From the NCBI GenBank assembly GCA_944376825.1, contig CALWDY010000012.1, positions 522 through 64,521 on the forward strand: a DNA stretch of 64,000 bases, in the 5' to 3' direction. A program made the translations under genes and the position numbers. Positions 3,493 through 19,617 of the stretch are shown here, piece after piece. Source of the DNA: an uncultured Clostridia bacterium. GTDB lineage: Bacteria > Bacillota > Clostridia > Christensenellales > UBA1242. Position 1 is the stretch's first letter; each line of letters begins with the position of its first letter. The notes beneath the pieces were generated by a model. That model did not search any database. It saw only the letters and a program-made list of their open reading frames with translations, and was not told the DNA's origin.

Positions 3493-3888
3493 ATGGTTAA
3501 TAGAAATACCAAACAAAAAGAATTTGTTCTTAATAACCTAAAAAATAGATTTGATCATCCAACATCTCAAAAAATATATGATGACGCACAAAAACAAGGA
3601 ATCAAAATTGGACAAGTTAGCATATATAGAATATTAAACAATTTAGTAAAAGAAGGACTAGTTTGCAAAATTGTCACAAAAGATAATGTTGCTCATTTTG
3701 ATTTTGTAAGAAAAAATCACATTCATTTAGTTTGTAATAATTGTAATCAGATTTTTGATAAAAATTTGAGTAATGACGACAATTTAACAGAACTAATTAA
3801 AGAGTTCAATATATCAATGCAAGATGTCATTTTATATGGCATTTGCAAAAATTGCAAAAATAATAATATTAAAAAAACAATAAAATAA
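3493..3888 (+). CDS. Fur-family metalloregulator (PerR-like by context)
   Basis: Winged-helix stretch QVSIYRILNNLVKEGLV, HFDF, and paired CxxC motifs (CNNC...CKNC). Sits directly downstream of the peroxiredoxin. ATG 3493 chosen over the overlapping upstream start. Confidence 0.7.
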   Translation: MVNRNTKQKEFVLNNLKNRFDHPTSQKIYDDAQKQGIKIGQVSIYRILNNLVKEGLVCKIVTKDNVAHFDFVRKNHIHLVCNNCNQIFDKNLSNDDNLTELIKEFNISMQDVILYGICKNCKNNNIKKTIK

Positions 3889-3898
3889 TATGTTATAA

Positions 3899-3936
3899 AA
3901 AGATAATACATAATTTGATTGTATTATCTTTTATTA
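3899..3936 (+). terminator. Rho-independent terminator of the prx/Fur-like operon
   Basis: 12-bp stem AAAGATAATACA / TGTATTATCTTT with a 9-nt loop, followed by a T-rich tract. Confidence 0.6.
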
Positions 3937-4001
3937 TTGGTTAAAATTTAAATAACTAAAATGCATTTTAATAAAATATATATTTATAAATTGGATATTT
4001 T

Positions 4002-4752
4002 TTATAAATTTTTTCCTTTTTCTTCGAGATAAGCTGAATAATTACAATTATATAATGACATTTCCCTATCATCAATTTCTAATATTTTTTCTGGTATTTT
4101 ATCTAAAAAATATAAATCGTGAAACACTTTAATCTTTGCCACATAAAAAGTTTTAATATAATTTTTTAACCATTCTATTCTTTCTATGTCAAAATTATTT
4201 GTGGATTCATCTAGCAACATTAAATTTGGTCTGGTTATCAAAATTATTGCAGTTTTTTACCCACCACTTAAATTATTATAAAACATAAATAAAGTGTTTT
4301 TACTATATTTTAACCCATCCACAACTGCATTAATATTAACATTTATATAACAGCATTTGAAAAAATCTTTCAGTAATATTGCAAAATTTTTCTAATGTTT
4401 TATTATTCTTTTTAGGTAAACTTTCATTTAATAGGTTTTGCAAAGAATTTAATATTACTTCCTTTTATTAAGGTATTTAAACGCATCTTTTAATATATCA
4501 TAAATACATCTAATTCTCCTTTTACTTAAACTAACTTGATTAAGATATACTACTTTTGCATTCTTTTTATTTTTATGCTTCTTGAATCATATTTTTCTAA
4601 ACATATAATCATTATAAGAAAAGTTGATTTTTAAATATTCATTAGGTCTAACTATTTACAGAACCTCTTCTTCATTTTAAAAAAAATGAGTCATCTTTAT
4701 AAAGCTGTTTAGATCCAAAATCTTTTCAAACCTATCAACTTTAAAAAATCAT
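4002..4752 (-). pseudogene. Decayed partial copy of an ABC-F ATPase (first nucleotide-binding domain only)
   Basis: Conceptual translation across several frames matches the intact ABC-F at 15565..17205. Examples are DFGSKQLYKDDSFFLK vs DFGYGKLFENVSFSLN, IYDILKDAF vs VYDILKDSF, and NNLSGG*KT vs NKLSGGEKT. The Walker A is destroyed (DLMNI*KST). Multiple stops and frameshifts; truncated after NBD1. Confidence 0.85.
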
Positions 4753-4814
4753 TATCCAAATTTCATTTGTATAATAGTTTACATATGCTTTTTAATTTAG
4801 TAAACCCAATAAAT

Positions 4815-6200
4815 TTATTTGGCTAAGATTTTTGTAACCAATTTCCTCATATTATATATCCCATTTATTAGATCTTTTTCAGATACTGCAAAATTAATTC
4901 TTGCAACCAACTGTTCTTTTTGGGGCCACATAATAGATTGACCACACAATACTTTAATTAAAGCATCATTGTAAAAAATATCAAATAATTCATAATCGTT
5001 GGTTATTTTTTTATCACCAATGGTTTTCCCTTTTATCATACTAAAATCAAGGACAGCGAAAAAACCAGACTGAACATATTGTGGTTCTACCGCAAATTGA
5101 ATATCAAGAGTATTATAAAGTAAATCCTTGTATTTTGTAGGACCTAATATTTTATAGACTTTCCTTTTTGTTCTAGTATTATATGTTCTATTCAGTAGCG
5201 CTATTAATAACTCAAGTCTATTTTTGTATAATTTATTTAATTTTGTAAAATATTTTTCATAATATTTTTTATTTTTAACAGAAAAAGCCCCTGTAAGTGA
5301 AGATATTGTTAATAAAGAAACAGAATCTAAAGTATGAAAAATAATATCTCTCATTTTTTTTATTACATCATTATTTGCAATCAAAATACCACTTCTTAAT
5401 GCAGCCAAACCAAAACATTTAGATAAACCTAATAATGAAATTATATTATTGGACTCAAAATTTGCCATAGGAATAGGATTGTAATTAGAAAAACAAATAT
5501 CCCTATATATTAAATCATCTATTATAAAAAAATTATATTTTTTAGCTAATTGAGCTAAATTTTTCAACACATCAATTTCTTGCACCCCCAAAACTTTTCC
5601 TGTTGGATTATGTGGATTGCAATTATAAAAAAATTTAACTCTCCCTTGTTTGCCTTGCGACTGCATAGATGAATTATACTTTTTTATTAATTTCTCTATT
5701 TCTTCTATATTAAATATCCAATTTTCTTTTTGTTCTAAATTTATTGTTAAAACTGTAAAACCATGTCTTTCAGGTGTAAAATCAAAAAAACCATAATTAG
5801 GACATGGGATAATTATTGCATCTCCGCATTGACCTAATGCATCAAAAACAAGGTTATACCCGTGCGTCGTTGAATAAGTAAAAACAATATTATTGTCTGC
5901 CACATTGTTATTGTAACCGATAGACTTTAAATATTTTTTTATTATAGCTTTATCATTTAAAGAACCACAAGTCCCCATGTATTGATATAAATCTTTTCTT
6001 TTTAAACATTTTTTAATCTCTTTTACACTAAACTTATAAGGTTTAAACTTGATTGGATCACCGGTCATTAAATTATATTCTTTGCGATTTAACATATATT
6101 TTTTTTGACACATGAAATCATACATAGTTGAAACCAACTTTAATTTTTCATTTTTACAATTTTCTATACTTAAAACCGGAACATCGTTGTTAATTTCCAT
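4815..6200 (-). CDS. PLP-dependent class I/II aminotransferase-fold enzyme (aminotransferase or C-S lyase); last gene of the RiPP-like operon
   Basis: NCNPHNPTG motif and LSKCFGLAALRSG (PLP-lysine region). ATG 6200 is preceded by TAGGTG at 6-nt spacing. An in-frame GTG at 6209 abuts the stop of the upstream gene. Confidence 0.75.
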   Translation of the reverse strand: MEINNDVPVLSIENCKNEKLKLVSTMYDFMCQKKYMLNRKEYNLMTGDPIKFKPYKFSVKEIKKCLKRKDLYQYMGTCGSLNDKAIIKKYLKSIGYNNNVADNNIVFTYSTTHGYNLVFDALGQCGDAIIIPCPNYGFFDFTPERHGFTVLTINLEQKENWIFNIEEIEKLIKKYNSSMQSQGKQGRVKFFYNCNPHNPTGKVLGVQEIDVLKNLAQLAKKYNFFIIDDLIYRDICFSNYNPIPMANFESNNIISLLGLSKCFGLAALRSGILIANNDVIKKMRDIIFHTLDSVSLLTISSLTGAFSVKNKKYYEKYFTKLNKLYKNRLELLIALLNRTYNTRTKRKVYKILGPTKYKDLLYNTLDIQFAVEPQYVQSGFFAVLDFSMIKGKTIGDKKITNDYELFDIFYNDALIKVLCGQSIMWPQKEQLVARINFAVSEKDLINGIYNMRKLVTKILAK

Positions 6201-6209
6201 ACTAAACAC

Positions 6210-7463
6210 CTATAAATCATAATAATTTAATTTTTTTAATTCAAAGTTATTAAGGACATCGCTTTTTAAATAAATATTTTTTAATTTTAATAAAGGTAAA
6301 ATTTTATTTTGTTGGGATTGCATTCTACACAGCTTTAATAAGTATTTTCTATTTCCTGAGCTTTCATATAATTGCGATACATTTCTATATTCCTTACCAA
6401 AAACCAGTTTAAAATATTTAGAAGTGTAAAATATCCCATTTGAATTGCCACCCACATAATTAATTTCCAAATTTATGTCATTATCGTTAGGCTCTGCCAA
6501 CCTGCAACTATGCAATTTTACAACATATCCAAACTTTTCTAATTGTTTTTTTATTTGTAATGCTATAATTTTGTTTGGGTAAAACTCACAATATCCCATT
6601 TTAATTGAACTATTAAAAATTTTCTTCTGCATATTATTATGTTTGTCTGTTTTTTTTGAAGATTTCTGTAAGAGAAAATTGTCTTTTATTTCATAAATGT
6701 AATTTACTTTTTCCAATATTTTAATTTTATCTATACAACCAAAAATGTTTTTTCTCCACATGTCAAATTTATCATCAAAATATTTCTTATTAAATTTTAA
6801 AACAAAAAACAAATTACTGTCATTTATCGATACATTATAATTATTAATTTTGTATAACGGAAAAGTTGTGGGATTGGTCATATCTATTTTACCAGAAACA
6901 AAATCTTTTATTTCTTTTCTAGTGCTTTTTGAAACATTAAATATAATTATGTCATTATTGATATTTTTTAATTTTTTACGATAATATGTATTGCGTTTCA
7001 ATGTAATTTCTTTACGTGTACTTTTTTGTATATAATATGGACCACTTGTCAATCTATTCTTAAAGGGAGAAACATACATTAATGTTAATTTTTCCAAAAA
7101 AAACACATCTTTATTAAACAATTCAATTTGCAATTTATCGTTTATACAAGAAACATTCTTAATGTTTTCAAACAAAAATTTTGCATAACATCTATTATTT
7201 AATATATAATTTAAAGCTTCACAATAATCTTTAGCACTAACCTTTTGACCATCTTGAAAATATAAATCACTTCGTAAAACAAATTCAAAAAACAAATCTT
7301 TTTTATTAATAAATGTCTTACAAGCGTTTGGTATAATTCGGTTCCGTTTATCAAATTTGACCAAAGGATCCATTATCGCTGAATATATCAACACTCCGCT
7401 GTAATCATTTACTAAAAAAGGATTATTAGATAATGGTAATGAATCAACACATATTTTACTCAT
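6210..7463 (-). CDS. Family-5 solute-binding-protein (OppA/DppA/NikA-type) homolog lacking any signal peptide or lipobox
   Basis: SBP_bac_5-like pattern: YSAIMDPLVKFDKRNRIIPNACKTF, LRSDLYFQDGQKVSAKDY, TSGPYYIQ...ITLKRNTYY, VSGKIDMT. The N-terminus MSKICVDSLPLSNNPF has no hydrophobic h-region. Start overlaps the upstream stop (ATGA). Confidence 0.6.
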   Translation of the reverse strand: MSKICVDSLPLSNNPFLVNDYSGVLIYSAIMDPLVKFDKRNRIIPNACKTFINKKDLFFEFVLRSDLYFQDGQKVSAKDYCEALNYILNNRCYAKFLFENIKNVSCINDKLQIELFNKDVFFLEKLTLMYVSPFKNRLTSGPYYIQKSTRKEITLKRNTYYRKKLKNINNDIIIFNVSKSTRKEIKDFVSGKIDMTNPTTFPLYKINNYNVSINDSNLFFVLKFNKKYFDDKFDMWRKNIFGCIDKIKILEKVNYIYEIKDNFLLQKSSKKTDKHNNMQKKIFNSSIKMGYCEFYPNKIIALQIKKQLEKFGYVVKLHSCRLAEPNDNDINLEINYVGGNSNGIFYTSKYFKLVFGKEYRNVSQLYESSGNRKYLLKLCRMQSQQNKILPLLKLKNIYLKSDVLNNFELKKLNYYDL

Positions 7464-8413
7464 CTTTCGTTTTCCTTAAACTTAACAATCAATTCTCTAT
7501 TTAAAGACTTTACACTTTCAAATCTATCCAATAAAAAAAATATAATATCCCAAGCCATATATGTTGCTATTAAAGTATTGGTTACTCCAAAAGAACTTTT
7601 GCAAGGAAATATGTATTTAATTTTGCTTAAAGCTCTATCTAGTTTAGTTATGTAATTATTTTTATCATTGTTGTTATTAAACAGTGGACCATAATGTCCT
7701 TCAAAAACACCAACACCCCCGAAAATTACTGGTGTATTGTACTTTTTAGATGCTTTTAATATTATTTTTTGTATAAATAATGGTGGAGTATCTGCAGCAT
7801 TAACAATTATGTCTATATGATTTTTATCAAGTATTTCAATCAAATCTTCTTCTTTTGATATAAATTTGTTATAACACATAACGCTTGCCTCATTTGAAAC
7901 AGATTTTATGTATTTTTTTAATACTTTTGTCTTTAACTGTCCTATTTCCTTCATTTTGTATACAAATTGCCTATTTAAATTAGAAATACTTATCTTATCA
8001 AAATCTATAATTACATATTTTTTAATGCCAACAGCAAGAAGTTGATTTATTATCTCCGAACAAATCCCCCCAGCACCAACAAAAAGAACTGTTTTTTCTT
8101 GCAATAATGATATATTATTAATATTATCAAAATTATGCATAAACAATTCAGTTCGTTCTGTACTGGTTTGAAACGATTTTATTATATTTTCTGGCGCCTC
8201 TTCCAACACTTCATTATTTACCAAAAACTCAAATGTTTTTTGAGAAAAATCTTTATCATCAATGATAGAAAAAGATTTTGAAAGATTGACCAACAGATTA
8301 TAATCTTTTTCAGGTAAACAATGCCTAATTGTTACTTGATTGTTTTCAAATAAAATTGTATTATCGCCCATAAATAACATCTTTTTTGCATCATTAAAAA
8401 TATATTTACTCAT
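7460..8413 (-). CDS. E1/ThiF/MoeB-like adenylyltransferase with a ~100-aa N-terminal extension (peptide-clamp/RRE-like)
   Basis: VLFVGAGGICSEIINQLLAVGIKKYVIIDFDKISISNLNRQF is the Rossmann GxGGxG plus NLNRQ signature, and NAADTP is present. The N-terminal part is predicted beta-rich (TILFENNQVTIRH). 8-nt overlap with the upstream gene. Confidence 0.75.
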   Translation of the reverse strand: MSKYIFNDAKKMLFMGDNTILFENNQVTIRHCLPEKDYNLLVNLSKSFSIIDDKDFSQKTFEFLVNNEVLEEAPENIIKSFQTSTERTELFMHNFDNINNISLLQEKTVLFVGAGGICSEIINQLLAVGIKKYVIIDFDKISISNLNRQFVYKMKEIGQLKTKVLKKYIKSVSNEASVMCYNKFISKEEDLIEILDKNHIDIIVNAADTPPLFIQKIILKASKKYNTPVIFGGVGVFEGHYGPLFNNNNDKNNYITKLDRALSKIKYIFPCKSSFGVTNTLIATYMAWDIIFFLLDRFESVKSLNRELIVKFKENER

Positions 8414-9674
8414 TGCTAACCACCCTAAGCATATTATCTTTTACAAGTAGAATAAAAATTTCTTTAATAGATTTTAGTTCACTAAAATCATATTTTAAAA
8501 GATTTTGTTCAAATGTTTTGTCAAATGATATTTTTTTTATAAGATTATAGGCTTCTTGGTCGATGATAACATTTTTACATCCTATTAAAACATATTTATC
8601 CTTGTTTTTAACTATTTTTGCAATGCCTGTTTTAAAATGAAATTTTTTTATTTTGTCCCAACTTTCTTCAATTAATTCATTTACCAAAACATCATTGCAA
8701 CCAGATGCAGTTTTTCCTATTTCGCACTTACATCCACCAATACATCTTACAAATTTTGCACAATTTTTACATATAAGTGAGCAATTTCTTATATGAGATT
8801 TTAAAATTTCGTTATTATTTTCCCATATCTCTTGCAACGAAGAAGAATATAAATTGCCCAATATATCAGTAGAATTTCCACAAATTGTCACATCACCATT
8901 TGTTTCAATCGCACAAGATTCTATACCTGCGTTACAGGGAACAACATCATCTAAATCGATATTATTGCTATAACAGCCAACGGAACAATGTCCAAAATTA
9001 ATATAACTTTTTTCACTTCGCAATTTTTTTAAAAGCGTCAAAAGTTTGACTGCCAATTGTTTGGAATCTTTTGTTTGACCTTTTCCAATTTGAAAAACTC
9101 TTGTAACATTAAGTTTTATCCCCAAGCTTTTACAAATATTCGCTACAGATTGTAAATCCTTATAATTAGTGTTAAAATCAGTAGCAGTATAACAAATATC
9201 AATATAGATATTGGGATATGCGTTTCTCAAATATTTTATATTACTTATAACTCTTTCATAACAAGATGATTTGGTTATTGCGTTGTGAGTTTTTTCTCTA
9301 CCATGAAGAGAAATAGATATACCATTTACATAATTAAGACATTCTTTAAGATGAGGACTAGATAGCAAACAACCATTTGTTACAACACATTGGTATAAAC
9401 TTAGAGTTTTGCCGTATTTTAACAGGTCTAAAAAATTAGAATACATAAAAGGTTCTCCACCAGTATAAAAAACTCTAATTATTCCAAAATTTTTTAATTG
9501 TAATAAAAGGTCTTTTGCAAATTTAAAGTCCATTTCAATATGCTTGCTTTCACCTTGAGAACAAAATGAACAATTTAACATACAATTGTTTGTTATTTTA
9601 ACAAATACTGAAAAAGGATGTTCATTTAACAAATACTCATAATGGTTAGATAATATATTATTGTTATAAAGCAT
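8406..9674 (-). CDS. Radical SAM enzyme with a SPASM domain and a C-terminal PqqD-like (RRE-like) extension; putative peptide maturase
   Basis: CMLNCSFC (Cx3Cx2C) at residues ~31-38 and GGEPF. SPASM cysteines are CAIETNGDVTIC and CKNCAKFVRCIGGC (Cx2Cx5Cx3C). About 100 aa follow SPASM (KIVKNKDKYVLIGCKNVIIDQEAYNLIKKI). Confidence 0.85.
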   Translation of the reverse strand: MLYNNNILSNHYEYLLNEHPFSVFVKITNNCMLNCSFCSQGESKHIEMDFKFAKDLLLQLKNFGIIRVFYTGGEPFMYSNFLDLLKYGKTLSLYQCVVTNGCLLSSPHLKECLNYVNGISISLHGREKTHNAITKSSCYERVISNIKYLRNAYPNIYIDICYTATDFNTNYKDLQSVANICKSLGIKLNVTRVFQIGKGQTKDSKQLAVKLLTLLKKLRSEKSYINFGHCSVGCYSNNIDLDDVVPCNAGIESCAIETNGDVTICGNSTDILGNLYSSSLQEIWENNNEILKSHIRNCSLICKNCAKFVRCIGGCKCEIGKTASGCNDVLVNELIEESWDKIKKFHFKTGIAKIVKNKDKYVLIGCKNVIIDQEAYNLIKKISFDKTFEQNLLKYDFSELKSIKEIFILLVKDNMLRVVSNE

Positions 9675-9677
9675 AAG

Positions 9678-11585
9678 CTATCCTTTTAAAATTATATTAA
9701 GCTTTTCTATTTCTTCCCCCAAAAACACATCATAGAAAATATCTACTACATTCTCATTTTTATAATTAATATTTCTTATTTTTAACAACTCGGCAATTTC
9801 ACCATCTCTTTTTTCAAAATAATCAGGGTCCATTGCCCCCATATCCCATATTATTTGATAAGTACTATTTTTAATTTCACTTAAACACTCTAAAAACTCA
9901 CATGTCTTTTTAAGCTTTTTGCTTTTAACTTGAATTTGTTTGTTTAACAAATCATTAAAACTGATATTTTCCTTTTCCAATAATTGAATTGACTGGTTGT
10001 AACTTTCTAATAGAGTTTGGCCAAATGGAATAACTCCAACTAATAATTCATTAATTGCTGCACAATATTCTTTAATAAAAATTTTTAATAATTCATCATC
10101 GCAACTATCTAATGCCTTTACTAGTTTTTTAACAATTAAAAGAAGTTGATCTTTTATTGTTTTTAAAAAATCAGCATCTAAGTTTTTCCCCGCTTGATTG
10201 ATTTGACTATAAAATTGTAAAAATAGAGGTAATTTTTTAAACCTTTCAATTTCCATTATCCACAAATACTTGTTATTGTCTTCACTATATTTTGGACACA
10301 TTCCAAAATGCAGTCTTACAAACAACTCCAATTCTGCTCTATTATCTCCATCCAATTTTTCATTTGAATGAATTATAATCCCCTCATATGTAAGCTCTAT
10401 AAATACTTTTTGATCCCTTAATGAATATGCAAAATAATTTTCAAAACAATCCAAATCACTATAATTAAAATGAAATTTTTTGTTTAAATAAATATCATTA
10501 TTGTTAATTTTAATAATTCCGTGGATTGTATCAAGTTCAATTTTATCTCCCGTTTTAACTTTTTTTGTAATATCTTTGCAAGCAACAACACAAGGTATAT
10601 TTAATTCCCTAGCCAAAATTGCAGCATGACATAAAACAGAACCCGACTCCGTGATAATAGCCGATGCTTTTTTCATTGCTGGCAAAAAATATGTTTCAGT
10701 TGCCTGAGATATTAAAATGCTACCTTCTGGGAATTTATTAATTAATTTAACCATATCCTCATAAGGTAGATCAAAGTCTATGAAATAAGCGTCCCCATTG
10801 ACATTTCCATTTGTTATGATTATTCCTTGCCCTTCACTGTTAGAATATTCTTTATTAATATAAATTGGCTTTGTTATTGGCCTCATTTGAGTAATAAATG
10901 TACGATTTTCATTATCCACGCACCACTCAATATCAACGCCCTTAGGATAAGTATTGTTAATTTTGTTTATAATTGTAATAAGTTGTTGAATATTTTCCAA
11001 ATTTATAAAATTTCCGCTATACTCACAATAATTTTCTTCAAATTTACCATTTATAAATGGGACAACCATTTTAAAAGAATTATAAATTCCTGAAACTAAT
11101 TTATCTCCCTCCCCCTCAACAATTTCAATCATAGCAGCCCGTTGCCCATTGACATTTAGAGCATTTGTAAAACACACACCAGAATATACTGGTTCAATCA
11201 TTTCCTGAATAATAATACTCATTTCAACTTTATTATTAGTATATGATTTAACGACTTCTGAAGTGGAACTTTTAAGTACAAACAAAATTGCTTCCTTAAT
11301 TTTAAAATAATCATTGTCAACATTTAGCATTGTTTTAAATATACCCGCAAAAGAATTTAATTCGCCGTCTTCAACATCTGCAGAAGATCTAACTGCAAAT
11401 TTTTGTGATTTTGAAAAATGAGAAATAAAATCTTTTATTGCAATCTCATCCACCTTTTCATTTTTAAAACTTTTTACAATTATTCCTTTAGGAATTCTAA
11501 TATTCATTTTTGAAAGCAAGCTTAACCCATAAGCCTTACCACCGCACAAATTCGAACAAGTATCATATGTATATATCACAAGCAC
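9678..11585 (-). CDS. PPDK/PEP-synthase-like phosphotransferase: ATP-grasp PPDK_N, then a phosphohistidine swivel domain, then an unknown ~270-aa helical C-terminal domain
   Basis: CGGKAYGLSLL, FAVRSSADVEDGELNSFAGIF, IIQEMIEPVYSGVCFT and TQMRPIT (PPDK_N-like). ITESGSVLCHAAILARELNIPCVV is the PEP-utilizer mobile-domain His motif. The start is uncertain: GTG at 11585 or GTG at 11579, the latter better spaced from AGAGGTG. Confidence 0.75.
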   Translation of the reverse strand: MLVIYTYDTCSNLCGGKAYGLSLLSKMNIRIPKGIIVKSFKNEKVDEIAIKDFISHFSKSQKFAVRSSADVEDGELNSFAGIFKTMLNVDNDYFKIKEAILFVLKSSTSEVVKSYTNNKVEMSIIIQEMIEPVYSGVCFTNALNVNGQRAAMIEIVEGEGDKLVSGIYNSFKMVVPFINGKFEENYCEYSGNFINLENIQQLITIINKINNTYPKGVDIEWCVDNENRTFITQMRPITKPIYINKEYSNSEGQGIIITNGNVNGDAYFIDFDLPYEDMVKLINKFPEGSILISQATETYFLPAMKKASAIITESGSVLCHAAILARELNIPCVVACKDITKKVKTGDKIELDTIHGIIKINNNDIYLNKKFHFNYSDLDCFENYFAYSLRDQKVFIELTYEGIIIHSNEKLDGDNRAELELFVRLHFGMCPKYSEDNNKYLWIMEIERFKKLPLFLQFYSQINQAGKNLDADFLKTIKDQLLLIVKKLVKALDSCDDELLKIFIKEYCAAINELLVGVIPFGQTLLESYNQSIQLLEKENISFNDLLNKQIQVKSKKLKKTCEFLECLSEIKNSTYQIIWDMGAMDPDYFEKRDGEIAELLKIRNINYKNENVVDIFYDVFLGEEIEKLNIILKG

Positions 11586-11617
11586 ACCTCTTTATATATT
11601 TAAATTTTAATGTAAAT

Positions 11618-11646
11618 AATACCAAGCACAAAAAGTGCTTGGTATT
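11618..11646 (-). terminator. Strong intercistronic hairpin between the precursor ORF and the first enzyme gene (partial terminator, attenuator or mRNA-stabilising stem)
   Basis: Perfect 12-bp stem AATACCAAGCAC / GTGCTTGGTATT with a 5-nt loop. It starts 10 nt after the peptide stop codon. The downstream tract AUUUACAUU is only moderately U-rich. Confidence 0.55.
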
Positions 11647-11655
11647 ATACTTTTA

Positions 11656-11718
11656 TTAGCTTCTGTGAACACAGCATTCCGCTAATAATTCTTCGTCGGT
11701 CATTTCTACTTCTTTCAT
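11656..11718 (-). CDS. Unannotated 20-aa ORF, candidate RiPP precursor peptide MKEVEMTDEELLAECCVHRS
   Basis: ATG 11718 lies 7 nt downstream of a perfect AGGAGG (11726..11731); TAA stop at 11656..11658. It has its own promoter, is followed by a hairpin, and sits directly upstream of and co-directional with the rSAM/E1-like operon. Acidic N-terminal part and Cys-Cys-Val-His-Arg-Ser C-terminus. Confidence 0.7.
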   Translation of the reverse strand: MKEVEMTDEELLAECCVHRS

Positions 11719-11737: not shown

Positions 11738-11766
11738 AGTATGCAACAAATTCATTTAAATGTCAA
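11738..11766 (-). promoter_or_regulatory. Sigma-70-type promoter driving the precursor ORF and operon
   Basis: On the minus strand: TTGACA (11761..11766), a 17-nt spacer, then CATACT (11738..11743). The predicted TSS is a few nt upstream of the Shine-Dalgarno, giving a very short leader. Confidence 0.5.
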
Positions 11767-12092: not shown

Positions 12093-12311
12093 TTAATAGT
12101 TCTTTATATTTTTTGATACGGCAACAACACGTAAGTTTTTGCAGTCTTGCTTTTTTGCAAAATTCTCAATATGTTTAACAAGCAATTTCCCATAACCCCT
12201 ATCTCTGTAAATGCGACTCACATAAATCTCATCTATGTTAAAAGATTTTTCACCTTTTTCTATATATGCTTTATCTTTTGCTTCAATTTCAAAACATCCA
12301 AATGCGTATAA
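12093..12311 (-). pseudogene. GNAT acetyltransferase C-terminal remnant (no start codon)
   Basis: 72-codon stop-to-stop frame reading ...IDEIYVSRIYRDRGYGKLLVKHIENFAKKQDCKNLRVVAV..., which is GNAT motif A (R-x-x-G-x-G). The N-terminal half and the start are missing. Confidence 0.55.
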
Positions 12312-12392: not shown

Positions 12393-13685
12393 TTATTTTT
12401 TTATAATTTTATTAAAATCTTTAACAATTTTCAACATACGCTCGTCTAAATACTTTAATCCTTGTTTTTCAATTTCTTTTGGAACACCATAGTAAGCGCC
12501 TGCTATTGCTCCCGTTATTGCCCCCATTGTGTCTGTATCTCCACCCCAAGAAATAACTTTTCTTATTGCATCTTCATATGAATTTGATACCAAAAACGCA
12601 AAAATGCTTTGCGGAACAGACTGTTGACACGAGCCCTCAAATTTGTAATTTTCAAACAAATCGTTTTCATCATAGTTCATTGGATAATAATTTTCGTCAA
12701 TATACTTTCCAATTTCTTCTTTACTACATCCGTTTAATGCCATCCACTCAGCCACCGCTGTTGCTTCTGCTCCTTTAATTCCTTCTGGATGATTGTGTGT
12801 TATCTCAGTTACTTTTCTTGATAACTCTTTTACTTCTTCTAAATTTTTTGCAACATAAGAGATTGCACTTATTCTCATTGCACTCCCATTACCAAAAGAA
12901 TTATAAGGTTTAGTGCTACCCGAAATTAACCACTTATAAAACATTCCACCATAACCTGCTGTGTTATAATAATTTTTACCTATTTCATGCATATTCACAA
13001 TTGTTATTTTGTCAAGATTTGTGTAATCTCCCTTGCAGTCAATTAAACTTTGTGCTATTGCACAAGTCATAACAGTGTCATCAGTAAAACGACAATAATT
13101 ATTGAATAATGGAAAATCTTTTAATTTTAAATTCATAAATTCATAAGGAGAGCCAACTATATCTCCAATTATGGTACCCATAAGCACCAATCTATTATCT
13201 TTAAGAACAAATTCTTCTGGTTTGGCTTCGTCAATACTCAATAAATTTGCTTCTGTAACATTTTTTGTTGCTATGTAGTTGTTTATATGTTCCAAATCTA
13301 TTTTTGATGAAAACCCACAATTCTCGTGAAATAATCTTGAACCTAAATTATAAATTCTAATATGGCAACTTATTGAGTTAAAACCTTTTAAATATTTAAA
13401 AATATATTCATAAATTTTTGTTCCTACGCCTTCTCTTTGGTAATTTGTATTTACAGCAATTTGTGCAATATACAAATCACCAATTCGATATAAATCTTTT
13501 TTTAAATAAGCATAACCAATTATATTTTTATTTAATCGTGCAACAACAAGATAATCGTATGGCAAAATGCCCTCATTTTCAAGTGTTCCCCCATTTTTTG
13601 CTAAATTTTCATTATTTATTTTTAATATTTGATTTTTGTCATTTTCATTTAAACTTTTTAATGTTTCAATTATATATTTTTCCAT
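12393..13685 (-). CDS. Fusion protein: N-terminal GNAT acetyltransferase domain plus C-terminal ADP-ribosylglycohydrolase (ARH/DraG-family) domain
   Basis: GNAT part: LYIAQIAVNTNYQREGVGTKIYEYI. ARH part: GDIVGSPYEF, FTDDTVMT, GNGSAMRISA, GGDTDTMGAITGAIAGAYYG. ATG 13685 (MEKYII) preferred over the upstream start at 13748. Confidence 0.7.
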   Translation of the reverse strand: MEKYIIETLKSLNENDKNQILKINNENLAKNGGTLENEGILPYDYLVVARLNKNIIGYAYLKKDLYRIGDLYIAQIAVNTNYQREGVGTKIYEYIFKYLKGFNSISCHIRIYNLGSRLFHENCGFSSKIDLEHINNYIATKNVTEANLLSIDEAKPEEFVLKDNRLVLMGTIIGDIVGSPYEFMNLKLKDFPLFNNYCRFTDDTVMTCAIAQSLIDCKGDYTNLDKITIVNMHEIGKNYYNTAGYGGMFYKWLISGSTKPYNSFGNGSAMRISAISYVAKNLEEVKELSRKVTEITHNHPEGIKGAEATAVAEWMALNGCSKEEIGKYIDENYYPMNYDENDLFENYKFEGSCQQSVPQSIFAFLVSNSYEDAIRKVISWGGDTDTMGAITGAIAGAYYGVPKEIEKQGLKYLDERMLKIVKDFNKIIKK

Positions 13686-14073
13686 ATTTTTCCTTTTATT
13701 TTTTTGTTTGCAAACATACAATGGTAAATTGAAATATATTAGATACAAATGTTAATTTTTTTGTTTATAAATATTTTTATTATTGTTATCTTTTACTATT
13801 AAAAATTTTATTTATGTATAATTCTGTTGCAAATTTATAATAAAATTTTTACTGTAACTAGATCTACATTCAACGATATTATCTACCAATATGATAGTGT
13901 ACCATACTTATACATTTTGAGGATGAACACACTGAGATGTCTTCCATTTTCAAACAGCAAACAGTTGCATTTTTTATAAATTCATTTAATAAATTTTCTT
14001 TTAAATTACAAAAACTTGATTTCCCTAAAACATATTTAATAATGTATTTCATAAACAAAGCCTCTAATATCAT

Positions 14074-15564: not shown

Positions 15565-17205
15565 ATGATTATATTAGATGTAAATAAATTAAGTAAAGAT
15601 TTTGGATATGGAAAACTTTTTGAAAATGTTTCTTTCTCACTTAACGAAGGAGAATCTATTTCTATTGTAGGGCCAAATGGCTGTGGAAAGTCCACTTTGT
15701 TAAAAATGATTGCGGGAATTGAAAAAATAGACAACGGAACGGTAAGCATAAAAAAAGATGCAAAAGTCGCATATCTTGACCAGGTCGGTTCAAGTTATGA
15801 AGATGATAGATGTGTTTATGATATTTTAAAAGATTCTTTTGTTGAATTAAACGAAATGGAAAAGCGATTAAACATGTTACAAGAACAATTAAGTCAACAA
15901 AGTTTAAGCAACGATTATGACACAATTCTTAAGAAATATTGCAACTTGATAGAAAAATTTTCTATGCTTGGCGGTTATGATATTGACACAAATATTAACA
16001 TGGTTGCCGAAGGGTTAAAAATTAATAAAACAATATTAAATCAAAGTTATAACAAATTAAGTGGCGGTGAAAAAACTTTGGTGCAACTTGCAAAATCACT
16101 TTTGATAAGACCTGATTTGCTTTTGCTTGATGAACCAACAAACCACTTAGATATAGAAAGAATAGAATGGTTGGAAAAGTATATAAAGTCGTTTAAAGGT
16201 GCAACAGTTATTATTTCTCACGATAGATATTTTTTAGATAAAATGTCCAACAAAATATTGTCATTAGAGTTTGGCACTCCAAAGGTTTATTGCACCAATT
16301 ACACTGGGTATTTAAAAGAAAAAGAATTGGAATTTGAAAAACAATTAACAGCTTATAAAAATCAACAGCAACAAATAGAGAGATTTGAAAAACAAATTAA
16401 ATATTTTGCTCAAATTGGAATGGCAAAGAACAGTTCTGCCATGTGTGATAGAGCCCACACCCTGCAAACTCAATTAGATAGATTGAAAAAAAATGCAATA
16501 AAAAAACCAAAGCAAACAGCAAACATAAATGTTGCATTTGATGAAGTTAAAAAATCAAGTCAAGTGATAATTGATGCAAAAAATTTAAAAACACAAACTC
16601 CAAGTAAAAATATAATTTTAGACAACATAAATATAAAAATTTGTTCAAAAGAAAGAGTCGCCATTATTGGAAATAACGGAAGTGGCAAATCTACTTTTAT
16701 TAAAATAGTTCTTAAAGCAAACGAACTGCCATTTGAAGGAGAAATTGTTGTTGGTCCAAGTGTAAAGATTGGATACTTACCTCAAATAATAAAATTTACA
16801 AACGAAAACTTTACTCTTTTAGAATATTTTAAAAATTCATTAGGTGTAGACGAACAAAAAGCTCGACAAATTTTAGCAAGTTTCCATTTTTACAAAGAAG
16901 ATGTCAATAAAAAGGTTAAAAACCTATCAGGTGGTGAAAAAATTAAGGTAAAATTAGCAGAACTTTTACAACAAAAAATAAACACCTTGATATTTGATGA
17001 ACCAACAAACCACATCGACATTCCAACAAAAGAAGTTTTGGAAAATGCACTTGATGAATTTAAAGGTACTTTGATATTTGTTAGTCATGATAGATATTTT
17101 ATTAACAAGTTTGCAGATAAAACAATAGAGTTTAAAAACGGCAAAACAACAACATATGTTGGAAACTATGATTTTTATAAACAAGAAAAAAACAAAAAAC
17201 TATAA
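15565..17205 (+). CDS. ABC-F family ATPase (two ABC domains, no transmembrane domain; translation-factor or antibiotic-resistance type)
   Basis: Two Walker A motifs (GPNGCGKST, GNNGSGKST), two signatures (LSGGEKT, LSGGEKI), two Walker B motifs (LLLLDEPTNHLD, TLIFDEPTNHID) and a Q/K-rich interdomain linker. AAGGAG lies 6 nt before the ATG. Confidence 0.9.
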   Translation: MIILDVNKLSKDFGYGKLFENVSFSLNEGESISIVGPNGCGKSTLLKMIAGIEKIDNGTVSIKKDAKVAYLDQVGSSYEDDRCVYDILKDSFVELNEMEKRLNMLQEQLSQQSLSNDYDTILKKYCNLIEKFSMLGGYDIDTNINMVAEGLKINKTILNQSYNKLSGGEKTLVQLAKSLLIRPDLLLLDEPTNHLDIERIEWLEKYIKSFKGATVIISHDRYFLDKMSNKILSLEFGTPKVYCTNYTGYLKEKELEFEKQLTAYKNQQQQIERFEKQIKYFAQIGMAKNSSAMCDRAHTLQTQLDRLKKNAIKKPKQTANINVAFDEVKKSSQVIIDAKNLKTQTPSKNIILDNINIKICSKERVAIIGNNGSGKSTFIKIVLKANELPFEGEIVVGPSVKIGYLPQIIKFTNENFTLLEYFKNSLGVDEQKARQILASFHFYKEDVNKKVKNLSGGEKIKVKLAELLQQKINTLIFDEPTNHIDIPTKEVLENALDEFKGTLIFVSHDRYFINKFADKTIEFKNGKTTTYVGNYDFYKQEKNKKL

Positions 17206-17953: not shown

Positions 17954-18634
17954 TTATAAGTTTTCTTTTTCTATAAATGGTATTAAAATTCTAGGAGAAG
18001 CGATTCCTGTGCATGAGATTGTGTGCAAATCACCTTTTATGTTTAATCTTTTAACTTGTTCATCTTTAAAATATGTGCAACTGTGAGTTTCCATCCAGCC
18101 GTATTTTTTTGTTTTTACCTCTATATCAAATTTCTTAAAATGATATCCAGCATCTTCTTTTGTTTTATCAACCACTCTGTATTCAATTGAATAATTTTCC
18201 AAAAAAAATGTTGCGTTTTTTAAAAACTCATAAAAATATTTGTCGGCATTTTCTGGCTTACAAAAACAATATTGTTCAAATTTTTTAAACTCTTTTAATC
18301 TTATAAATCCCTCTAAATTTAATTCCTTTCTAAAACATTCGTTAAATGAAAAATAACATTGTTCTTCTTCTACGCTCTTATTCATAAAGTATTCTAAAAA
18401 GCCTTGTTCTGCACTGCCAAAAAGCGCATGCGTCTCATCAATTCCCAAACTTTGGTCTGTTCTTACTGCTTCTTGTTTTTCAACAACCTCCCATTTCCCA
18501 GCACTTGGCAACGATAAGTATTTGTAACCCTTTTTTAAAAGCATATCTTCAAAATCTCTAAATAGTTTTCTTTCTAGTTCGCTTAACTTATTGTCAAGAT
18601 AATACAATCCGTTTTCAACATAATAATTATTCAT
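17954..18634 (-). CDS. Seryl-tRNA-synthetase-like class II catalytic core only (no tRNA-binding coiled-coil arm); possibly an amino acid:carrier/ligase-type paralog
   Basis: SerRS-like motif 2 is ECFRKELNLEGFIRLKEFKKFEQYCFCKPE. FDIEVKTKKYGWMETHSCTYFKDEQVKRLNI corresponds to DLEvW...E.SSCSN..DFQARR. Motif 3 is HTISCTGIASPRILIPFIE. Only 226 aa. 8-nt overlap with the upstream gene. Confidence 0.6.
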   Translation of the reverse strand: MNNYYVENGLYYLDNKLSELERKLFRDFEDMLLKKGYKYLSLPSAGKWEVVEKQEAVRTDQSLGIDETHALFGSAEQGFLEYFMNKSVEEEQCYFSFNECFRKELNLEGFIRLKEFKKFEQYCFCKPENADKYFYEFLKNATFFLENYSIEYRVVDKTKEDAGYHFKKFDIEVKTKKYGWMETHSCTYFKDEQVKRLNIKGDLHTISCTGIASPRILIPFIEKENL

Positions 18635-19617
18635 ATTTTTTACTTTCCTTAACTTTATTTGAAAATTTTATTAAATCATGTATAGTTAAACCATAATTTT
18701 CTGCAATTTTTTCAACTGCTCCAATGATATCTGAAAGTTCAATAAGATACATTAAATGGTTTTGTTGTTGCAATGCATCTTTTGCCTCTTCAACTTCTTC
18801 TTCTACTTTTGAAAATTCACCATAAACACCTTTTTTTATGTTTTTTTCGTGAAAACTAAATTTTTGATTTACATTTATTTCATCATAAGTGTTTTTTGTT
18901 GAAAAATGAATTGTCAAAGGTTTGTTGTTTTTTGTTTCAAAAATAAATCTTTTGTGTAAAAAAGTTTTAAGTTTATTTGTTGTAATTATATTGTTTATAA
19001 CATTGTCTATCTCTGAAATAGCAAGCGCATTATTCTTAATCCAAAGACTTTGTTTTGTTCCATTGTTTGAATTATCCAAAAATTTTAATGCAATTGTTTC
19101 AACATTTTGAATGTTTGAATAATGGTCTATGTAGCGATTAATAAATTTAACATTGTTGTTTAAAAGAACAATATTTACCCTTACTCTCTTTGCATTTAAA
19201 AAACTTGAAAGTTCCAAATAGTTTTGATTTTAACCAAAAAACTTTTTATCCTCTAATGCGTTAGATGATACAACAGTAATTTCCTTTAACCAACCACTAA
19301 ATAGGTTTAATTTTTCTTGTTCACAAAACAAATTACCAGAGGTTTGAATTCGATAATCTTTAAATATTTTTGAATTTTCCACTATTGTTTTTATTTCTTC
19401 AAGTTTTTTTAAATCATACAACGAAGTTTCGCCATTGCCCGACAAAATAAAATGCTCAAAACTTATTTTTTTTGTTTTTGTAATAACTAATTTTGTCTTT
19501 TAAGCTTTTTATTTCTTCTTCAAATGAACTTGTATTTTTGTTATTCATTTTAGCAATACAATAAGGACAATTCTTATTACACTTGTAATCGTTTAGTATA
19601 AAAACAAAATCTTTCAT
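18627..19617 (-). pseudogene. Disrupted radical-SAM enzyme fused to a C-terminal HisE/MazG-like all-alpha NTP pyrophosphohydrolase domain
   Basis: The N-terminus MKDFVFILNDYKCNKNCPYCIAK (Cx3Cx2C) follows an AGGAG Shine-Dalgarno. A +1 frameshift sits in the A8 run (19466..19473), after which the frame continues FEHFILSGNGETSLY. An in-frame TAA lies at 19230..19232. The C-terminus EFSKVEEEVEEAKDAL...LIELSDIIGAVEKIAENYGL carries the EExxE...ExxD pattern. Confidence 0.6.

Follow-up and report, generated by a model that had tools for sequence, protein, structure and literature searches.

A stretch of 64,000 nucleotides (nt) from an uncultured Clostridia bacterium (contig CALWDY010000012.1, positions 522 to 64,521; the whole stretch is hereafter called the window) carries, at positions 6210-7463 on the minus strand, a gene for a 417-amino-acid (aa) protein related to the family-5 solute-binding proteins (SBPs; hereafter, the SBP5-like protein). 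We conclude, with a probability that we put at somewhat better than even (roughly 0.55), that this protein is a cytoplasmic, non-transport binding partner of a ThiF enzyme, that it descended from an OppA-type protein, and that it serves as a core subunit of ThiF/MccB-type peptide maturation. The protein has a complete two-lobe SBP5 fold, its export by a signal peptide is impossible, and it has no permease partner. It also belongs to the co-inherited core of ThiF-type peptide-maturation clusters, the substrates of which have -R-S/C/T as their common C-terminus.

The Pfam model SBP_bac_5 matched the 417-aa protein with E=1.6e-16 (60.8 bits against a cut-off of 32.4), and we obtained weak matches to the NikA and OppA models of NCBIfam and to the sequences of NikA and OppA crystal structures. 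A profile of the SBP5-like family matched Firmicute OppA structures from end to end (E=5.6e-42). An AlphaFold2 model built from a family alignment of 57 sequences reached a predicted local distance difference test score (pLDDT) of 94.8 and a predicted template modelling score (pTM) of 0.91, superseding an earlier run on five sequences that had been poor (pLDDT 61). Comparison of this model with the Protein Data Bank using Foldseek returned only family-5 transport binding proteins (OppA, DppA, MppA, NikA, AapF and SapA), with query-normalised TM-scores (TMq) of 0.78-0.85 at ~15% identity, and the top 50 structural neighbours were all binding proteins. The likeness of the 417-aa protein to the OppA-type fold is far above chance, and the initial annotation of this DNA, which had recognised an SBP_bac_5-like gene here, was right in this respect.

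The same annotation had reported that the protein lacks a signal peptide and a lipobox, and we reached the same result by several routes. A hydrophobic h-region, a basic/hydrophobic signal segment and a lipobox are all lacking from the first 40 residues, and in the AlphaFold2 model the first beta-strand of the SBP fold is already formed by residues 2-6 (pLDDT 97). Translation of the upstream frame revealed in-frame stop codons four codons 5' of the ATG, which exclude any longer N-terminus. Five close homologues (37-99% identity, including four independent ones at 37-49%) start at the same position and have no signal. The upstream stops and the conserved start together ruled out a mis-called start that hides a signal peptide, which had been named as one finding that could overturn the annotation; the other, a consistent linkage of orthologues to Opp/Dpp permeases, was not borne out either. 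No OppBC/DppBC-type permease lies beside the SBP5-like gene in 18 related loci, and no OppB/C-like permease was found in the whole 64-kb window. The further statement that no ABC ATPase partner is adjacent needs one qualification: ABC ATPase sequences do lie near the gene, although they are soluble, ribosome-associated ABC-F proteins and not transporter subunits.

An exhaustive profile search of 1.84 billion representative proteins produced 451 matches at E<1e-10, of which 48 were at E<1e-30. Among the best 150 representatives, at least 125 were signal-less, and nearly all 150 were 400-480 aa long and began directly at the IDxxPL...DY motif. About a dozen of them, low in the list and resembling ordinary exported SBPs, had a hydrophobic signal-like N-terminus. 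The motif [GAS][YF][DEN]x[FY][YF]PN occurred in ~95 of 159 sequences, none of them signal-bearing. The signal-less state is conserved across the whole SBP5-like family and is not a quirk of a single gene. For the scan of metagenome loci we used a narrower alignment, which yielded two loci, the broader alignments having no stretch that was conserved enough; a tblastn search of plasmids gave no matches for P0081 or P0033 and only canonical OppA genes for P0050. Two giant database proteins (P0086 and P0140; 2,700-2,850 aa), with BTAD/AAA SARP-like N-termini followed by four tandem SBP_bac_5 domains, were considered as informative fusions and rejected: they are SARP/AAA regulators with tandem repeats of ordinary SBP5 domains, outside the SBP5-like family, and apparently represent another, unrelated cytoplasmic use of the fold.

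In the window, the ATG of the SBP5-like gene overlaps the TGA stop codon of the ThiF gene (ATGA at 7460-7463), and a gene for a pyridoxal-phosphate (PLP) enzyme begins 0-9 nt past the TAG of the SBP5-like gene. This bears out the translational coupling on both sides that had been described for the gene, which is co-transcribed and translationally coupled with the gene for the MccB-like ThiF. The association extends well beyond the window. Among the related loci we distinguished six cluster architectures (A to F), which share no more than three elements, the SBP5-like protein, a ThiF enzyme and a short precursor. A ThiF/MccB-like adenylyltransferase was found in every related locus with enough visible context, and in 11 out of 13 loci the SBP5-like gene overlaps or abuts the ThiF gene, with both gene orders occurring.

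Architecture A comprises the window, L001-L004 and L006-L008, on the contigs of the five close homologues and in three species-representative genomes (an uncultured Clostridia metagenome-assembled genome [MAG], an uncultured Tenericutes genome and a further MAG). Its gene order is precursor, phosphoenolpyruvate (PEP)-utilising enzyme, radical S-adenosylmethionine (rSAM) enzyme in some loci, ThiF, SBP5-like protein, PLP enzyme and ABC-F protein, and the PLP enzyme is conserved 3' of the SBP5-like gene. Architecture B, from Pantoea, Vibrio cholerae, Dickeya and a metagenome contig (L013), consists of a 47-48-aa open reading frame (ORF), a JmjC protein, the SBP5-like protein, ThiF, an alpha-ketoglutarate-HExxH peptide hydroxylase, a second JmjC protein, a major facilitator superfamily (MFS) transporter and an ABC-F protein; L009, L010/L011, L012 and L013 thus have two JmjC/cupin enzymes and a peptide beta-hydroxylase of the alpha-ketoglutarate-HExxH type (TIGR04267). 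Architecture C (L016, a GC-rich metagenome contig) has a 94-aa ORF, the SBP5-like protein, ThiF, an rSAM enzyme, a B12-dependent rSAM enzyme and a methyltransferase. Architecture E (L018, a plasmid of Paraclostridium bifermentans) has a small ORF, an MFS transporter, the SBP5-like protein, ThiF, two B12-dependent rSAM enzymes and a methyltransferase.

Architectures D (L017) and F (L019), on Firmicute-type contigs, have an ABC-F protein, a small ORF, a PEP-utilising enzyme, ThiF, an Orn/Arg-decarboxylase-like PLP domain, a PLP-like protein and the SBP5-like protein. Immediately upstream of the SBP5-like gene in these two architectures, and overlapping it, lies a gene of a ~370-390-aa family (L017 6415-7587; L019 7914-9014; also L005 1-555) with 35% mutual identity, a GMSAI...SHTKLDMLG pattern and a sub-threshold match to Cys_Met_Meta_PP (E=0.012), which suggests a divergent PLP enzyme that replaces the aminotransferase.

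Comparison of the architectures also showed which enzyme is the constant partner. The initial annotation had proposed that signal-less SBP5 homologues might co-occur with the rSAM family of the window; we found instead that the rSAM enzyme is dispensable and that ThiF is constant. The rSAM/SPASM gene is absent from L002 (846-1051), and only its first 43 codons are left in L006 (5836-5964), the rest of the operon being intact in both. Thus, the rSAM enzyme is no obligatory partner. The L006 locus, from a Clostridia MAG, is 94% identical to the window locus, and the loss of the rSAM gene in L006 and L002 indicates that the cluster has decayed in different ways in closely related strains. There is no rSAM enzyme at all in architectures B, D and F, and those of C and E may or may not be of the same family as that of the window. 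Of the earlier idea of a recruited intracellular peptide binder, the cytoplasmic SBP5 fold within a pathway that yields ribosomally made, post-translationally modified peptides (RiPPs) stands, and holds family-wide; the partner is ThiF, not the rSAM enzyme.

The precursors provide the second common thread. The window precursor consists of a leader part, MKEVEMTDEELLAE, and the C-terminal hexapeptide CCVHRS. Small homologous ORFs ending in -R-[S/C/T] occupy the same place in L006, L007 and L008 (MEEVEMTDEELLAECCVHRC, MIKFFRRVFSKRSELTDKQLLTNCCIHRS and MVKFLKRVFRKKSDLTDKQLLASCCVHRS are precursors from orthologous loci), and such ORFs are also present in all other architectures; those of architecture B, 47-48 aa long, end in LLLA(T/V)HRC or LSVQRT. 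The precursor ended in R-[S/C/T] in 12 out of 12 cases (CCVHRS, CCVHRC, CCIHRS, CMSARS, MSQRS, NDRRS, VDRRS, AVHRC, ATHRC and SVQRT), against a background of ~0.9% for the others among 1,370 small ORFs from the same loci, and the candidates have leader motifs in common. The window cluster has both features by which ThiF-like RiPP clusters are recognised, a ThiF domain with an N-terminal MccB-like region and a precursor (here 20 aa) with its own ribosome-binding site. Within such clusters, the microcin C type is defined by a C-terminal Asn and the pantocin A type by an internal EEN motif (PMC11256085). Neither the C-terminal Asn nor the EEN motif occurred in any of the 12 precursors (0/12).

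We next consider how the two proteins might divide the work. Residues 18-307 of the window ThiF align to MccB residues 31-322, and by this alignment, the sole evidence on the point, the window ThiF includes the N-terminal peptide clamp of MccB. In L016 and L019, by contrast, the P-loop of ThiF lies at residue 61 or 73 instead of ~113-128 as elsewhere, indicating that the N-terminal clamp is truncated there, and the SBP5-like protein is kept. Pfam gave no match to a RiPP recognition element (RRE) or PqqD in the C-terminal 103 aa of the rSAM enzyme or the N-terminal 100 aa of the window ThiF. The earlier suggestion that the SBP5-like protein substitutes for an RRE fits the window only in part, since ThiF there still aligns with the MccB clamp; in the two other architectures the clamp is truncated and the SBP5-like protein retained.

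OppA-type proteins enclose short peptide segments between their two lobes. In OppA, an Asp (D419-type) forms a salt bridge with the free alpha-amino group of the peptide ligand and anchors it. In our profile alignment, the column of this Asp (motif GW.xD) has a non-acidic consensus in the SBP5-like family and Gly340 in the window protein, which would fit a ligand formed by the end of a longer peptide. The invariant residues of the family include D20, Y21, Y291 and N297. By sequence register, the D20-Y21 dyad would fall on what we take to be the OppA strand that hydrogen-bonds the ligand backbone. This dyad and the family-specific invariant polar motifs [GAS]Y[DE]x[FY]YPN and TxNTxFP are absent from transport SBPs. 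The first of these motifs, together with IDxxPLx(9)DY, sets the family apart from transport SBPs.

We propose that the inter-lobe cleft of the SBP5-like protein clamps the conserved C-terminal core of the precursor, where it may add specificity for the Arg and the terminal residue. With the SBP5-like protein co-operating, ThiF would then activate the carboxylate with ATP. Enzymes of the ThiF/MccB type adenylate a carboxylate, often the C-terminal one of the peptide; the adenylate is then resolved by a nucleophile that may be internal or external (PMC12596934). The SBP5-like protein may hand the peptide to ThiF, protect the acyl-adenylate or hold the resolving nucleophile in place. The PEP-utilising enzyme, the rSAM enzyme and the PLP enzyme would supply lineage-specific tailoring steps.

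Several points weigh against a binding partner of this kind. If the window ThiF keeps its MccB-like clamp, as the alignment indicates, a second peptide binder is not obviously required. If a Venus-flytrap cleft buried the C-terminus, it and ThiF would be rivals for one carboxylate, a conflict avoided only if the SBP5-like protein binds a different segment or the adenylated product. Two other genes separate the SBP5-like and ThiF genes in L017 and L019, and no SBP5-like/ThiF fusion protein was present among the top 150 representatives. The pairwise identities of ThiF and of the SBP5-like protein are correlated over 13 loci (r=0.89), a sign of co-evolution that is inflated by shared phylogeny. 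Finally, gene context was sampled in ~19 loci that were picked by availability.

An ABC-F gene of the ribosomal-protection-like kind accompanies most clusters. The NCBIfam model NF000355 (ribosomal protection-like ABC-F; cut-off 380 bits) scored 441-486 bits for the proteins of the window (the intact paralogue at 15565..17205), L006, L007 and L019, whereas those of V. cholerae and L017, at 350 and 317 bits, remained under the cut-off. None of the cluster-linked ABC-F proteins reached the EttA or Uup cut-offs. The recurrence of this gene suggests that the product of the clusters acts on the ribosome. In the window, the cluster-linked copy is a decayed ABC-F gene, as its ~860 nt at 81% DNA identity to the L006 gene indicate; the one ORF left in the remnant, of 79 aa (4002..4241), is 70% identical to residues 178-254 of the L006 protein.

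A bolder reading is possible but, in our judgement, doubtful: that a two-protein maturase, made up of the SBP5-like protein and the MccB-like ThiF, defines an unrecognised, phylogenetically broad RiPP class with -Arg-(Ser/Cys/Thr) precursors and ribosome-targeting products, in which the flytrap fold would take a direct part in the C-terminal chemistry and not serve just as a passive leader binder. Ribosome-targeting products would explain the linked ABC-F protection genes. Were this so, the class would span gut Firmicutes and Tenericutes to V. cholerae, Pantoea and Dickeya, and the fold would position the activated carboxylate or its nucleophile.

The SBP5-like protein could also be a catalytic subunit that resolves the acyl-adenylate made by ThiF, for instance through a cyclisation, or through condensation with an amine or a thiol that the cleft holds. 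Its retention in all architectures, including those in which ThiF brings its own clamp, speaks for this, as do the invariant polar motifs that transport SBPs lack and the requirement of known ThiF-RiPP enzymes for a defined nucleophile (PMC12596934). We nevertheless regard catalysis as unlikely: we identified no recognisable catalytic constellation such as a nucleophile-base pair, the conserved residues might simply form a specificity pocket, and the nearest structural neighbours are binding proteins throughout.

We give still less credence to a role in self-protection, in which the protein would sequester the mature or activated product in the producer cytoplasm until export, as the initial annotation had proposed under the name of product-sequestering immunity. 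SBPs do bind small peptide-like ligands tightly, a dedicated exporter is missing from the window cluster, and the ABC-F gene linked to it is decayed. However, in all architectures the gene lies inside the biosynthetic operon, coupled to ThiF and not to resistance or export genes; most clusters have a separate ABC-F gene of the resistance type; architecture B keeps the SBP5-like protein despite having both an MFS exporter and an ABC-F protein; and stoichiometric sequestration would be a poor defence against a compound that is made catalytically.

It is very improbable that the protein resembles the SBP5 domain of SgrR in being a cytoplasmic ligand sensor or regulatory module, one that would report how much precursor or product is present. 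Escherichia coli SgrR shows that a cytoplasmic SBP_bac_5 domain can work, and some family members are labelled "SgrR" in IMG, but the specific kinship implied by these names was rejected, as profile similarity to SgrR is only at the generic SBP5 level (86% probability over 131 columns). Moreover, the protein begins at the first strand of the SBP fold, has no DNA-binding or signalling domain, and has no regulator consistently adjacent to it. Least credible of all, notwithstanding the OppA-like sequence and fold, is an ordinary transport SBP, mis-annotated or non-classically exported, that serves an Opp/Dpp system encoded elsewhere, given the stops directly upstream, the signal-less start conserved in the family, the missing permeases in the window and beside the gene in every related locus, and the missing lipobox Cys in a Gram-positive-type cell, where a transport SBP requires a lipid anchor; in V. 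cholerae, the opp-type permease pair 7 kb from the SBP5-like gene has its own 518-aa SBP5 gene, which suggests that the SBP5-like gene does not encode the binding protein of that operon.

The operon that contains the SBP5-like gene in the window (Table 1) runs on the minus strand from a promoter-like site through the precursor, a hairpin, the PEP-utilising enzyme, the rSAM/SPASM enzyme, ThiF, the SBP5-like protein and the PLP enzyme to the decayed ABC-F gene.

Table 1. Features of the SBP5-like gene cluster and its surroundings, with positions in the window.
Feature	Position	Strand	Size	Remarks
Promoter-like site	11738..11766	minus		TTGACA-17 nt-CATACT; 10/12 consensus positions; assigned by consensus match only
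Precursor peptide gene	11656..11718	minus	20 aa	MKEVEMTDEELLAECCVHRS; read from sequence; AGGAGG 7 nt upstream
Hairpin, attenuator/terminator-like	11616..11648	minus	14 bp	Between precursor and enzyme genes; dG -20.5 kcal/mol, z=-5.7
PEP-utilising enzyme	9678..11585	minus	635 aa	Pfam PPDK_N E=9e-29, PEP-utilizers E=2e-22; ATP-grasp and swivel-His domains
Radical SAM/SPASM enzyme	8406..9674	minus	422 aa	Accessory tailoring enzyme; Pfam Radical_SAM and SPASM
MccB-like ThiF adenylyltransferase	7460..8413	minus	317 aa	Pfam ThiF E=4e-34
SBP5-like protein gene, signal-less	6210..7463	minus	417 aa	Starts MSKICVDSLPLSNNPFL; subject of this analysis
PLP-dependent enzyme, class I/II aminotransferase fold	4815..6209	minus	461-464 aa	Pfam Aminotran_1_2 E=6e-29
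ABC-F remnant (pseudogene)	3800..4830	minus		Matches the 5' part of the intact L006 ABC-F gene (81% DNA identity, ~860 nt)
Intact ABC-F paralogue	15565..17205	plus		65% identity to the ABC-F protein of L006; lies 4 kb upstream of the cluster

The hairpin was picked up by a terminator scan and is conserved in L006. The best NCBIfam matches of the PLP enzyme were GntC-like and PatB C-S lyase-like models, all under their cut-offs. In the PEP-utilising enzyme, the C-terminal 265 aa that follow the swivel-His domain (window 9678-10475) have no Pfam match and are kept in orthologues (55% identity in L002); they are possibly a substrate-binding domain, in a domain order unlike that of rifampin phosphotransferase.

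Outside the operon, a 451-aa fusion of a GNAT acetyltransferase and an ADP-ribosylglycohydrolase is encoded directly upstream of the cluster (12393-13748, minus strand); behind it comes a GNAT-like fragment of 42 aa (12093-12221, minus strand) with the look of a decayed duplicate. Farther away, two overlapping minus-strand ORFs of 226 and 196 aa (17954-18634 and 18627-19217), the first of which carries a tRNA-synt_2b class II tRNA-synthetase core, could represent a frameshifted or split gene or a HisZ-like paralogue.

The SBP5-like family and its RiPP cluster type are apparently sizeable, taxonomically broad and uncharacterised. ThiF-type RiPP systems are themselves known and are an actively mined source of new peptide chemistry, and current reviews describe ThiF-like enzymes as acting alone or with RRE domains; what appears to be new here is a ThiF-type system with a repurposed SBP fold as a core subunit. 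An SBP-fold partner that looks obligate would change the detection of clusters, in which genes annotated as "ABC transporter substrate-binding protein" are usually taken to serve transport and ignored, and the reconstitution of pathways in vitro, for which the partner may be required. It would also add to what is known of the evolutionary reuse of the SBP fold within the cell. From the -R-S/C/T ends and the recurrent ABC-F genes it also seems that gut bacteria, and pathogens such as V. cholerae, carry a family of peptides that is uncharacterised and may target the ribosome.

We found no description of the SBP-ThiF pairing, the -R-S/C/T precursor class or the PEP-utilising/ThiF combination in the searchable literature, although a description elsewhere is possible, and none in that literature of the Pantoea/V. 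cholerae/Dickeya cluster. The main texts of two recent ThiF-RiPP reviews and of a ThiF genome-mining paper on lactic acid bacteria contain none of the terms sought for a solute- or substrate-binding partner.

Among known maturases, the window system is close to MccB-MccA (microcin C), PaaA, GrcB, EnfB and IndF, with a ThiF that aligns with MccB including its clamp and a short precursor with a strictly conserved C-terminus. It differs from the microcin C and pantocin A types in precursors that end in R-S/C/T, with neither Asn nor EEN, and in its ABC-F, PEP-utilising and PLP enzymes. Like the two-component RiPP maturases (E1-like/Ocin-ThiF with YcaO, and stand-alone RRE/PqqD proteins), it would have a dedicated peptide-binding protein, regulatory or non-catalytic, that is encoded beside an ATP-dependent modifying enzyme and works with it (PMC12596934); unlike E1-like/Ocin-ThiF with YcaO, ThiF here is probably the catalyst rather than the binder. 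The RRE is an ~85-90-aa winged helix of three strands followed by three helices (PMC12710340), and our model, a 417-aa Venus-flytrap SBP, does not have this fold. The SBP5-like protein, which is not an RRE by fold, may work like an RRE or an auxiliary YcaO peptide-binding partner.

With the cluster-C SBPs OppA, DppA and NikA, the window protein shares the full two-lobe fold and the motifs LRxDLxFxDG, GPY and NxxY. It is ~80-100 residues shorter, with trimmed loops, has neither a signal peptide or lipobox nor a permease/ATPase partner, and lies inside a biosynthetic operon; in the alignment, the Asp that binds the ligand N-terminus appears not to be conserved, and the FYPN and TxNTxFP motifs are present in the SBP5-like family. 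It is a homologue of these proteins by fold that fails two of their defining functional features, export and permease linkage. SgrR of E. coli likewise has a family-5 SBP domain that works in the cytoplasm without export, so a cytoplasmic SBP5 domain is uncommon but not unprecedented. SgrR carries an N-terminal SgrR_N winged-helix DNA-binding domain and stands in a regulatory context, whereas the window protein consists only of SBP_bac_5. MbnE, a methanobactin-associated protein of the OppA/DppA family, is, like the window protein, an SBP5-family protein encoded in a RiPP operon. MbnE, however, is an exported periplasmic protein, whereas signal-peptide export is impossible for the window protein, whose partner is ThiF.

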